From positions 1 to 64,000 of the forward strand of contig NW_026921094.1 of assembly GCF_032062105.1 (NCBI RefSeq): 64,000 bases of DNA, in the 5' to 3' direction. The notes under the pieces are model-generated. The model was not told the DNA's origin, did no database searches, and saw only the letters and a list, made by a program, of their open reading frames with translations. Source of the stretch: Saccostrea cucullata (lineage: Eukaryota). Both the position numbers and the translations under genes were made by a program. Each line of letters opens with the position of its first letter. Position 1 is the first letter of the stretch. Positions 38,395-43,210 of the stretch are shown here, piece by piece.

Positions 38395-38890
38395 TCAATA
38401 GAAAGATGGATATCCAGCCAGCCCAACTGTCTCTCTTTCCGTTTAAAACTGATAACTATGGAACGTTGTTGGTGTTAAAAGGAAATGGGCACGGACACGA
38501 TTTTATTTTGTTGTTGTGTTTTACTCCTGGGCGAAACGGGAGTGAAGTAATTTATATGGCTGGACCTAAACTGAATCTGAGACCCTGGCCTGAATTCTTT
38601 TGTCCAATTGATATTTTGCACCGTTAACCTGGTCGTTTGCTTTATGCAGGTTGATTCTAAGTGTTTCTTTGTTGCATCTCTTTATATTCTCCCTCACTTC
38701 GTTCGTCCGAATATAAATTAATTATACTCTTTATTCTGTATTGAAAGAATAATCAACTCATATGTATGGAATGCTGCTCGTCAGAACGTAGAACAATCAA
38801 AGAGAAAAGTGCATGTAAATAATAATAATACCTGTCTACACACACACACTATATATGCATATATATTTATTAATAGATATTCATTCATAT

Positions 38891-39912
38891 TTACACGAAA
38901 AGACTATTAGACACTTTCAATTTGTTATCTATACAATCCTTCATATAATTGTCTCTGGAATAGTCAGATTTCCAACGTCCATGTATTTTGATCAGACGCT
39001 CCGATACATTTTTCTCGGCTGCAGTCGTTGCCCCTCCACTTCGCAGACTGTGCAAACCAAAGCCTTTTGAATCTATTCCCACTTTTTTCCAATGCTTCTA
39101 ACAATAACTCTCGGGCTCTTGTATATGAAATCGGCTTGTTAATACCGCACAACATATATTTTCCACATGACTTGTAAAATCTAATTGCTCTGAATGCATA
39201 TTCCTCTGGTTTATCCTGAATTGCTGCTAGATTTAAATAATGCTTAATCCAAGATACAGGACACAGCTTCCCTCCTGTCTCTGCCAATGTCACTTCGTTA
39301 CCACGCCTGTATACGTAAGTTTTGCTGGATTCGATGCAAACATTCATGTATAAATTCTTGAAAATTATATTTTTCACTTTAATATTAGATAATTCGCTAA
39401 ATCGCAAAAAACCTGCGAAACTCAACAACAATATAGCCACTGTTCTTACACTTCGTAAATCACAATTTTGCTCCCGATCCAGATATACATTTATAATCTT
39501 CTCTAACACATCTGGCGAAATTGGTTCCTTCTTCTTTATGGGCTTTGATAAAATTCGTTTTCCCCCCTACATTAAACTATGAATAACACTGTCGTCACAG
39601 GGATTAGATAACGCACAATGAAGATCATGATACCACTTTATACTATAAAAAAAATGAACATAGAACTGCTTCAGAAACTCCCTGTTGAATTAATCCACTT
39701 AAGAAAATGGCAATCACACTAGATTTTGCGGGAAAACTTGCGACATCTTTGGAAATACACCACTGCGTAAATTTCTTGAAATACGTTTCATACTGCTTGA
39801 CTGTGTTTTTACTTTTTGCACTTTTCATGATGTGGAATATTGAGGAATCTGCTGATTTAAACTGCTCTTTCGTTGACATGTCTTTAATTTCCGCCCAAGT
39901 ACCATTAAAAAT
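38891..39912 (-). pseudogene. Tyrosine recombinase ORF of the retrotransposon, frameshifted
   Basis: FAGFLRFSEL (catalytic R), SSKT, GLHSLRSGGAT (HxxR), HGRWKS..DNY (H/W and catalytic Y). Confidence 0.9.
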
Positions 39913-40012
39913 CTGTGAATAAACAGCAAAAATATAACAACACACTCACTTACATATTTAAACTGCTATTATTATATTTTTCTGAAATCAATTCTAACAA
40001 CCAAAACGTTAC

Positions 40013-42300
40013 TCAAAAACATCTCTTGAGCAAATATACTCGACTTGTCTGATCCTGAAATAAAAAAAAAATTCTTGGGTTCTTATATTCAACATATTCT
40101 TTTATATAAGATTTGTAAGATGTTGTACTTTTATACCATATCATTGGCCAAAATAAAGAAGACAACCATTTAGGAATGATTAAAGTTCCATATGCATTAC
40201 ACAAACGCAAATGTTTTATCACTTTGCCTATAAGGAAAGGAGGAGGTACTATCCAACAATTTTCACCTGACCAATCATAAGCGAAAGCGTCAACTCTTGT
40301 AGTGCCTGGATTCCAATATTTCGAATAAAACCTTTTAACTTTGTTATTCTTACAATTTGCAAAAAGATCAATTATAAAAAGAACCAATATTCTATCAAAA
40401 TATCGGAAAATGTGACCAGACCAGGCGCGGATCCAGGAATTGGAGTTAGGGGGGGCGCCAACATTAGGCAAGGGGTCTGGGGGCCGCCTTGAGGCCCCCA
40501 GTGGGTCCAGGGCAAAGCCCTGGTGGGGGCCCAGGGGGCGAAGCCCCCGGAAGCTCTTGGATTTTAAAGATTTTGTAGGGTAAAAATGAGGTCTACCAAT
40601 TAGACATATTTACATTTTCTAGACGAAACAGTGATTTACGCTAACTTTGACAATTTTAGGGGGGGGGGGGGGCGCCGGGTGCGCCCCCCCTTAAATCCGC
40701 CACTGCAGACACACTCCAATCATCACTGTCACTATCTGCATCCATGTTGAATTCTCTTGGTATCCACTGTACTTCAAGTAAAATACTGTATTGCACACAG
40801 ACACCAAATATACTCAATGCCAGCTGATGCAGCTCGTCAACCATACTACCTTTACATGCGATGCGCACGACATTTTGATTATCTGTAAATATTTTTACAA
40901 ACCTTCCACTCAACACATCTGCCAGACTTGATAAAATTATTTGTACTGACTTTAATTCTCTCCAAGTTGAACTTTGACTTTTTTCACACTGATCCTACAT
41001 GTAATGAACTATTTTCTTATTTCTTTCACATGTAAACCCTGCGCCTGCATGAGAACTTGCATCTGAAAAAATAATTTTCTCTGGTGTCTTATCAATACAT
41101 GTAAAATATTTGCAAGGGAGCTTACTGATTTTGTAATGCCAAAACTCTAACTCTTGAATATTCCCATTGTCTATATACAAAATTTCATCCCAGCCAGTCT
41201 TAGAGCAAATTGTAATACTGAGACGTCTAGTCATTAACTGACATATATTTCCCAAAGATGGTTTTAATGCGATAATTTTTCCCACAATAGAAGATAATTT
41301 TCTCGCCGAAATATTGTTTTTATTCTCTAAAAGTTCTTTTAATAAAGATTTAATATTACTAATTTTTTCCAAAGGAACTTCTAGCGTCCCGCTTTTCAAA
41401 TTCCACAAAAACCCTAACCACACCATACTCTGAGTAGGCTCAAGTACTGACTTCTCAGTATTTATAACAAAACCTGATCTCTGTAACGTATCTTGTATTG
41501 TGTCTGATGCAGACTTGCATTTCTCGTACGTTTCACAAACCCAACCATCGTCCAAGTATACTACCACAGGTATAGGGCTTGATCTCCAATATTTCACTAA
41601 AACTCTCACTACTTATGTAAAAACATGTCCTGCTGAGGATAAACCAAAAGGTAACACATTAAATTCGAAAAATCTGAAATTGTCACCATATTTCCAAGAA
41701 AAACCTAAATATTTGTGAAAATCTGGATGTATATCAATATGGTGATACCCTGATTTTAAATCAAACTTAATCATGTGCATTCCCTGTTTTGCATATTGTA
41801 AAGCCTCACTCACCCCTTCAAACTTAACCTTTTGTTTTTCTACAAATTGATTTACATGTAGAAGATCTAACACCAACCTTTTCTTACCTGTGCTGTTCAC
41901 TGAAACAGTAAGTGGATTAACAACATGTATTTTTTCTTCAGATATTTCGTGAATACAACCAGAATTTAAAAGATCATTGATGGCTGTACAAACAAAATCA
42001 CTGTGAATATGAGCCGACTTATTATTTTTTAAAACGACCTTAGGCGGCGACTGAATAAATGGAATAACATAACCAAATTGAATAGTATTTTTAACAAATG
42101 TGTTTGAAGACAATTCACCCTTCCAAAATTGTAAACAATTTTTTAACCGAAACTTTACTGAAATCATCGAACACGTGTTTAACTCATATTCATAAGAATC
42201 ACTCATACAGCCTTCATTTTCACTATACTCAACTTGTTCTCTACTACTGTTTGTTGGTGTTGTGGCTAGAGGTCGATGCGACCGTGGAAGGTGACACTGG
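40013..42300 (-). pseudogene. pol of the YR retrotransposon: RT, RNase H, adenine-methyltransferase-like domain; stops and a MITE insertion
   Basis: KKRLVLDL, FDLKSGYHH, LPFGLSSA, YLDD, FSDASS, FTDNQNV, WIPREFN, DLFA..FYSKYW..DAFAYDW..CWIVPP. Confidence 0.88.
40422..40705. mobile_element. GC-rich MITE with CAG termini and 5-bp TSD (cagac), nested in pol
   Basis: caggcgcggatccagg / cttaaatccgccactg. Removing it plus one TSD restores DDWSVSGHIFRYFD. Confidence 0.88.
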
Positions 42301-43065
42301 AACTTGATGTCCTCTGGCAAATGGGCAGTCCCTGACGTAATGTCCGACCTGTCTGCAGAAAAAGCACTTCTGTTCAAAGTTCTGTTGACCTGCGCCGTAT
42401 TCGATTGGTTTGGCGAATTGTTTGTACCCCCCTGTAGCAAACGTTTGGCCGAAAGTGCGAAAAAAGTCGTTGGCAGCAAATGCATTCTGTCTACGGTTTT
42501 GCATGGGATATGTGTATGGCTTCCCTCTGTAATTACGCTTACGAACAGCACGGCTAACAGCGCCCCGTAACTTAACAGCGTCGTCATTGTTGTCTGCTAA
42601 TGGATCGTCTAAATATTCGTTGACAGTATCCCACCCGTGCCTGTCTGCTATTTTTAGAATCTTGTTTCGTTGTCGCAACTCGCCGATTTCTTTCTCAATT
42701 GTCAGTGCCGCATTCTCCAAATCTTTCTTCTCTATAAAGTTTTTTGTTTCAATCAACTTTTCTATTCTCTCTGTATTAAAGGTATGCTGAATGCGGTGTC
42801 CCTCGTGTTTGAAATCGAATGAGTTATGTTTAGTATCCTCCCGTGCGCTATCCTCGTGCCCGGTATTCGTGGCGGGATTATTAGGTTTACTGTTAATTTG
42901 CTTCACAATAGAACTCCCAATGACCTCATTCTGCTGTTGCAAAGCTTTTCTCAATGAACTATTAAACAAAGATACTGCATCCTCGTTAGACAATTGTTCA
43001 TTAGACTCGCCCAATAAAACTTCTTCAGAATAGTGCACATCTGAACTCGCTGTTCTGGTTTCCAT
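42244..43065 (-). CDS. gag-like ORF1 of the YR retrotransposon
   Basis: RNKILKIADRHGWDTVNEY motif and CFFCRQVGHYVRDC (CX2CX4HX4C) knuckle; overlaps the pol frame. Confidence 0.85.
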   Translation of the reverse strand: METRTASSDVHYSEEVLLGESNEQLSNEDAVSLFNSSLRKALQQQNEVIGSSIVKQINSKPNNPATNTGHEDSAREDTKHNSFDFKHEGHRIQHTFNTERIEKLIETKNFIEKKDLENAALTIEKEIGELRQRNKILKIADRHGWDTVNEYLDDPLADNNDDAVKLRGAVSRAVRKRNYRGKPYTYPMQNRRQNAFAANDFFRTFGQTFATGGYKQFAKPIEYGAGQQNFEQKCFFCRQVGHYVRDCPFARGHQVPVSPSTVASTSSHNTNKQ

Positions 43066-43118
43066 TCCTTACAACGTTCTGTACGAGCGGTAGAATAACT
43101 TTTAAAGCACGCACCTGC

Positions 43119-43145
43119 TATTTATATGACCATGTCACGTGACAT
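43119..43145 (-). promoter_or_regulatory. Putative internal promoter of the YR element: palindromic E-box ATGTCACGTGACAT and TATAAATA
   Basis: 14-bp perfect palindrome at 43132-43145; TATA at 43126-43119, ~60 bp upstream of the gag ATG. Confidence 0.55.
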
Positions 43146-43210
43146 AAAAACCACACAGATCCACCACTCTGTTCACACAGGAAATACCCATAACGACAAT
43201 AATAATAATT

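Follow-up and report, generated by a model that had tools for sequence, protein, structure and literature searches.

The 64,000-nt stretch of Saccostrea cucullata DNA analysed here (NW_026921094.1), referred to below as the window, carries on its minus strand a tyrosine recombinase (YR) retrotransposon that has two defined ends and no evident terminal repeats, which raises the question of how such an element could copy its ends through RNA. According to the preliminary description of the locus, the promoter-bearing portion of the 5′ end could not be regenerated from a transcript of a linear copy, and a distinct replication mode was proposed. We judge the first point to be right. The second is the less probable reading: relatives with split direct repeats shed one-unit copies (a joint from B to A being unseen in this family itself), and a distinct mode is not needed because the known split-repeat layout accounts for the copy. 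The element has the layout A-ORFs-B (A and B, the 5′ and 3′ terminal repeat units; ORFs, open reading frames), with both ends and both blocks in place, and in its relatives two-unit and one-unit forms coexist. Its probable source is a Pat1-like master carrying the split direct repeats A1-ORFs-B1-A2-linker-B2, from which it would descend as a dead-end product with a single unit.

Boundaries and repeat blocks of the element

The element fills positions 38682-43212, in the order gag, reverse transcriptase (RT)/RNase H, methyltransferase, and YR. A paralogous block at 7739-10688 matches both flanks and lacks the element (7739-10257 and 10252-10688 are the aligned parts), and five empty paralogues can be aligned across the insertion site. 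These alignments bear out the claim that the empty paralogous site (10200-10310, plus strand) fixes both ends. The crossover core TTAT (plus strand) is present at both junctions but only once at empty sites; the sequence at the empty site 10250-10253 is TCAT, and TTAT is present in one other paralogue. As had been described, only TTAT is common to the two junctions, but its positions (38682-38685 and, at the right junction, 43209-43212) place the right end at 43212, not at 43210. Other copies of the family were studied in four public sequencing runs, one of which (X8) may be DNA. Loose contig ends in run X2 fall at 38681 (five contigs) and 43212 (two contigs), so other genomic copies end at identical places.

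Self-comparison agreed with the preliminary description that this copy lacks long inverted terminal repeats (ITRs) and split direct repeats, and contains a single A and a single B. Between its two ends, perfect inverted matches reach no more than 8 nt, and no second copy of A or B was found in the window. A match of AATAATAATAAT at 38818-38829 to the 5′ end was rejected as a split repeat, since it is a microsatellite with no similarity beyond AATAATAATAAT.

The extent of the A and B blocks was read from the other copies. Depth in X2 reaches 438.5 at 43073 versus 57.9 for the body contig, and binned depth is 1143 and 1131 at the element ends versus ~57 for the body, in sums that count overlapping contigs more than once. 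The deep blocks break off at 38789 and at 43055-43082, and run X8 contains an A-to-B joint linking 38789 to 43055. Together, deep blocks and joint define A (43055-43212, minus strand), which comprises promoter and leader, and B (38681-38789, minus strand), and they show an A-linker-B form. The inner edge of A is given by the joint at 43055 and a contig end at 43082 and its outer edge by the loose ends at 43212; the outer edge of B is given by the empty site and the X2 loose ends, and its inner edge by a loose end at 38789, the joint, and the excess depth.

Relatives and their layouts

An RT alignment search recovered 80 metagenome loci and 11 genome-bin loci, several of them on long host-like contigs. 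No relative was found in viral contigs by this search, and an exact search for the terminal hairpin of the element gave no match in viral contigs or genome contigs. Loci L081, L083, L084, L087, and L088 (G001-G003 and G005) are from bins labelled bacterial or archaeal with long contigs bearing animal-type retrotransposons, likely through host contamination.

The complete two-unit layout, A1-gag-pol-YR-B1-A2-linker-B2, is present on a long contig in L083, and L084 has the same order through A1-ORFs-B1-A2-linker, with B2 not found. In L042, B1-A2 (4354-4680) separates pol from YR, and a pyrimidine tract with AG comes next, as though this internal repeat were intronic or drove a separate YR transcript. 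Another group (L016, L017, and L026) splits its gag in the layout A1-zinc-knuckle exon-pol-YR-B1-A2-gag-B2, which is permuted in L005, L007, L014, L027, and L035. In split-gag loci A2 and B2 enclose the main gag exon, and the zinc-knuckle exon follows A1 (also in L005, L007, L014, and L035), and splice-like donors and acceptors around B-A (for example, L016 3731-4907 and L026 3977-5034) suggest splicing across it. The full Gag of these families would need a circle, a tandem, or a permuted form, and their one-unit copies cannot be autonomous because most of gag is missing.

One-unit forms are present on long contigs as well. L087, on a 778-kb contig, is a lone A-ORFs-B with exact ends, and its flanks are consecutive parts of the reading frame of another retroelement, of the BEL/Pao family by its motif. 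L114 and L118 are lone A-linker-B units on long contigs. A pattern search of five assemblies gave 14 matches, including five in coding elements, seven non-coding A starts, and two chance matches; the seven non-coding starts have no B in front, and a downstream B is shown for L114 and L118.

In a FastTree phylogeny of 49 RT/RNase H rows (L088 was omitted because of its length), the element clusters with mollusc proteins within the split-repeat clade, away from L089; deep nodes of this tree are poorly supported, and no named PAT reference is included. L089, from a genome bin, is a complete DIRS1-type element (316-5531) with ITRs plus an ICR (internal complementary region); it served as the outgroup. 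The non-coding linker of distant families contains a T/C-tract followed by a GG-T-tract (L054 4893, L061 4559, L084 10235, L114 1937, L127 2000, L134 1953, and L073 3563). This motif was rejected as proof, being patchy (7 of 33 sequences tested) and absent from the window element.

Junction hairpin and miniature internal complementary region

The B block ends in a hairpin with a 9-bp stem and a 19-nt loop (38681-38717, minus strand). The loop matches 17 of 19 nt of the L016 hairpin loop and contains the mini-hairpin ACGAAGT (38696-38702, minus strand), of the GNA-triloop class treated in PMC13037366. Among 12 aligned ends, pairing holds in 97% of cells, versus 33-55% in slid controls, and compensatory changes on both sides occur at 7 of 11 pairs, figures that are inflated by relatedness and by the choice of ends that show the motif. 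The C-G pair of the triloop is present in 12 of 12 ends, and the outer closing pair is G-C in seven and A-T in five. According to the available part of PMC13037366, GNA-triloop mini-hairpins are far more stable as DNA than as RNA. The junction hairpin may therefore pass through a single-stranded or extruded DNA stage.

Arms outside the stem pair across the B-A junction. Their longest perfect complement is 7.05 nt within families versus 4.18 nt across (20 families, permutation p = 5e-5), and 7.2 versus 4.35 nt when the 15 natural junctions are taken alone. Because this pairing is family-specific, each element holds an inverse copy of its own junction, a miniature ICR. In the window this region is at 38709-38725 (minus strand) and its best match among four joins covers 16 of 17 nt, a figure that is weak for this copy alone in so AT-rich a region. 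The hairpin ends B in 10 families, as in the window element, and begins A in 10, with loop motif and orientation alike. The covarying junction hairpin with its GNA mini-loop and the pairing of opposite ends are clade-wide (20 families). A reading of the junction as a miniature direct repeat was rejected, since direct matches are 2-5 nt and complementary matches 5-11 nt.

Pairing between the predicted leader and the start of B

The A block contains a promoter (43119-43145, minus strand) with a TATA box at 43119-43126 and a 14-bp E-box palindrome at 43132-43145; CACGTG plus TATA is also present in A of L054, L055, L083, and L087. Downstream of the TATA box by 38 nt lies a predicted RNA leader segment (43074-43088, minus strand), a candidate self-primer complementary to the first 14 nt of B (38776-38789, minus strand), which form a candidate primer-binding site at the B inner edge. 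A predicted poly(A) signal, AATAAA, is present in B at 38730-38735 (minus strand). Hairpin, AATAAA, E-box/TATA, and inverted pair are thus all placed as the preliminary description had them, and its impression that the hairpin and the complementary pair look functional is strengthened by the recurrence and covariation of both across the clade. Rfam returned no match in the element or in seven related loci, so it contains no known ribozyme.

By itself, the inverted pair is within chance over 4.9 kb (165 inverted pairs listed); it coincides with the family's inner block borders and scores p = 0.002 in a restricted test. When the first 45 nt of B were compared with the last 60 nt of A, p ≤ 0.01 was obtained in 5 of 11 families. 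The unrestricted pairing score is 8.5 within families versus 6.8 across them (p = 5e-5), and a score of 9 is reached in 7 of 17 own pairs versus 21 of 272 cross pairs. In five of the seven scoring families a TATA-like box precedes the A side by 30-43 nt, which places the A side where RNA would begin; no such box was found in the other two. In the window and in L026, pairing of the leader's 3′ end falls on the first base of B; in L035, L054, and L061 it falls 4, 13, and 27 nt into B, respectively. This geometry fits what self-priming of the Tf1 type needs (described in the available part of PMC4600332); the primer of DIRS-1 is unknown according to the portion of PMC7192593 at hand. An RNA panhandle that aids template switching fits the pairing equally well. 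A CGTTCT / CCCGTTCT motif is present at or just before the B start in L011 (4870-4950), L021, L037 (7370), L014 (936), L042 (4320), and the window (38784-38789), and could be bound by a protein or a small RNA, which would be an alternative to self-priming.

RNA run X22 (612 reads) has no pile-up of read ends that would mark a transcription start, and RNA depth gives no start site, strand, or level. Reads cover the bin that lies largely upstream of the predicted start, at a depth of ~13.

Proposed cycle and alternative explanations

In a split-repeat master, RNA synthesis would begin within A1, some 30 nt downstream of its TATA box. The leader would anneal where B begins and, once cut by RNase H, serve as the primer of minus-strand DNA, as in Tf1; this self-priming is the least certain step of the cycle, possible but doubtful. 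DNA synthesis would begin at the B inner edge, and a single A1-to-A2 template switch, in which promoter and B-A junction are copied, would complete the circle at that edge. The product would be a circle with two B-A junctions, each of which could fold as a long hairpin with inner stem, outer stem, and GNA mini-loop. The B-A junction is the likely recombinase site, and crossover would occur within a short, AT-rich core (TTAT in this element). The two permuted two-unit forms found in relatives would arise according to which junction integrates, and a lone A-ORFs-B, such as this copy, and a lone A-linker-B would be left when like repeats recombine or the recombinase acts on the inner junction.

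Several observations weigh against deriving the window copy from such a master. The RT of the element is only 39% to 42% identical to those of L083, L084, and L087; the nearest DNA loci (47% to 50% identical) are too short to show ends; and no close relative with DNA was found among the fetched loci. L037 and L020/L023, which like this copy have an intact gag and a hairpin in B, are known in one-unit form only. Short-read one-unit contigs (L018, L058, L059, L037, L020/L023, and others) agree with the long-contig examples but are weak evidence because three chimeric pairs (L032/L033, L049/L052, and L012/L013) have a common 3′ flank and different 5′ flanks. The outer stem of the window copy alone is 5 nt against a cross-family background of 4.9 nt. 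For the leader pairing, no more than seven of the 17 families reach a score of 9, and the own-family mean of 8.5 is only a little above the 7.2 of the same-sense control. Finally, no B-to-A joint (43212 to 38681) is present among the 15 of 54 joints listed, where one at body depth would have ranked beside the others.

The missing joint favours an explanation in which the family truly lost its split repeats, A-ORFs-B and A-linker-B are separate, and B-A exists only in circles excised by the recombinase or in rare tandems, whose read-around transcripts would restore the promoter, the mode of the preliminary description. The ends of other copies do run into diverse flanks, and the body in X2 is homogeneous and young, with contigs at 40706-43082 and 39258-40391 that are free of any internal repeat and depart from this copy by 50 letters in 2447 and 31 in 1131 (2.0-2.7%). 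The one-unit state of L037 and L020/L023 and the RNA reads upstream of the predicted start also point this way. However, the joints listed are a fraction of the total, contigs drop short junction pieces, and every well-sampled family with a readable junction has B-A in genomic DNA (15 natural junctions). The upstream RNA could equally come from B1-to-A2 read-through or host transcripts, and circle excision is hypothetical, so we consider this loss unlikely. The preliminary description had singled out canonical repeats in other copies as counting against a distinct mode. This has come true in part: relatives carry split direct repeats and also yield one-unit copies whose two ends are intact, and this family shows the two blocks and the A-to-B joint.

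A DIRS1-like mechanism in miniature, with the 17-nt complementary region and the hairpin templating both ends of a single-stranded cDNA without a direct repeat, would account for a region that pairs with both termini and is family-specific across the clade, and the ICR is essential in DIRS-1 (available part of PMC7192593). We regard it as improbable, since it would restore at most ~9 nt per end and no inverted copy exists of the promoter stretch, ~115 nt long, that precedes the predicted start. ICRs in the accessible portion of PMC3266345 add up to 85-130 bp and accompany ITRs of 66-316 bp, and the RT is only 27% identical to that of the ITR- and ICR-bearing L089. Also improbable is a collapse of A2-linker-B2 between near-identical B copies in the window assembly, the true locus having full split repeats: collapse is evident in short-read relatives, but the window resolves many 80% to 95% identical paralogues and tandem arrays, and a one-unit copy is also present in the long contig of L087. 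The split-repeat master thus remains our preferred source of the copy. A broader proposal, which we hold to be speculative and on balance unlikely, is that Pat1-like elements self-prime with the leader on B and close circles at a cruciform-like miniature-ICR/GNA junction, as an intermediate between split repeats and ITR/ICR, and that the units of the bivalve family move as separate coding and non-coding circles.

Coding content, decay, and surroundings

The gag ORF (42244-43065, minus strand) is uninterrupted and encodes a CCHC zinc knuckle (Pfam zf-CCHC, E = 1.4e-5). Pol (39978-42158, minus strand) contains RT (RVT_1), an RNase H region, and a methyltransferase (Pfam Dam, E = 7e-4; homologues carry PF05869), and is broken; it matches P0002 in three pieces at 60% to 67% identity. 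The recombinase ORF (38891-39945, minus strand; Phage_integrase, E = 4e-5) is split over three frames and differs from other copies by single bases at 39083 and 39649. No integrase family was matched by Pfam in eight element ORFs, in which RVT_1 and Phage_integrase are present. Named protein relatives, at 51% to 66% identity, are from Mytilus, Mizuhopecten, Magallana, Haliotis, and Amphiura.

Frameshifts, stops, and a nested 289-bp miniature inverted-repeat transposable element (MITE) disrupt the pol and recombinase ORFs. The MITE (40417-40705) lies in pol with a 5-bp target duplication, and the joint 40416 to 40706, with five shared letters, is present in runs X1 and X2. It is a high-copy, GC-rich sequence with short imperfect terminal inverted repeats, with a depth of >14,000 in X2 versus 57 for the element body. 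The copy as a whole is broken and is without evident host role. It is surrounded by TRIM-type genes, including a RING/B-box ORF at 36391-38394, and the window (1-64000) is a cluster of many paralogous TRIM-like (RING/B-box) gene blocks that are 70% to 93% identical. Two arrays of ~84-bp units in opposite orientations, ~360 bp apart, are present at 44684-46462.

Comparison with known systems

The clade-wide end features are of greater interest than this broken copy itself. The leader-B duplex and the covarying hairpin pinpoint exact bases to mutate, so that priming and closure become testable, and the hairpin and start-to-end pairing could show how this element class primes and closes its DNA copy. 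For annotation, repeat-less YR elements whose ends are clean are likely to be one-unit products, and the short end motif is usable to locate element ends and non-coding units.

With RT/RNase H, a tyrosine recombinase, no DDE integrase match, and a short common core at both junctions in place of a staggered-cut target site duplication, the element belongs to the DIRS order. The available part of PMC4157794 describes the layout of the echinoderm form of Pat1 (SpPat1 type, Szitenberg et al. 2014) and reports such elements from molluscs and cnidarians. Shared with these are RT/RNase H, then methyltransferase, and YR on one strand, a Gag zinc finger, and, in relatives of the window element, A1-ORFs-B1-A2-B2. 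The window copy differs in having one A and one B without split repeats, and is placed in the clade as a derivative. That part of PMC4157794 does not describe the junction hairpin, miniature ICR, leader-B pairing, or split gag across B-A, and the clade-wide end features were not found in the literature searched, a scope outside which lie the main subscription papers and Repbase.

Ngaro elements of Cafeteria have solo AB repeats, ascribed to recombination in the available text of PMC8547959. One-unit products of split-repeat elements are the common point, and the A-to-B joint and deep ends found here fit them; unlike in Ngaro, the reciprocal product A-ORFs-B is present here, a linker separates A and B, and the element has a Dam-like methyltransferase, which Ngaro lacks. 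DIRS1-like elements are similar in having internal sequence complementary to both outer ends, an AT-rich crossover core, and a methyltransferase (as far as PMC7192593 and PMC3266345 were accessible), but the window element has no ITRs and its complementary region is 17 nt rather than the 85-130 bp in the latter source. In Tf1/Tj1, as in the leader pairing proposed here, a 5′ segment of the RNA is complementary to an internal site for the putative start of DNA synthesis; the Tf1 site is just after the 5′ LTR (accessible portion of PMC4600332), whereas the site here would be at the start of the 3′ repeat, where priming is inferred.

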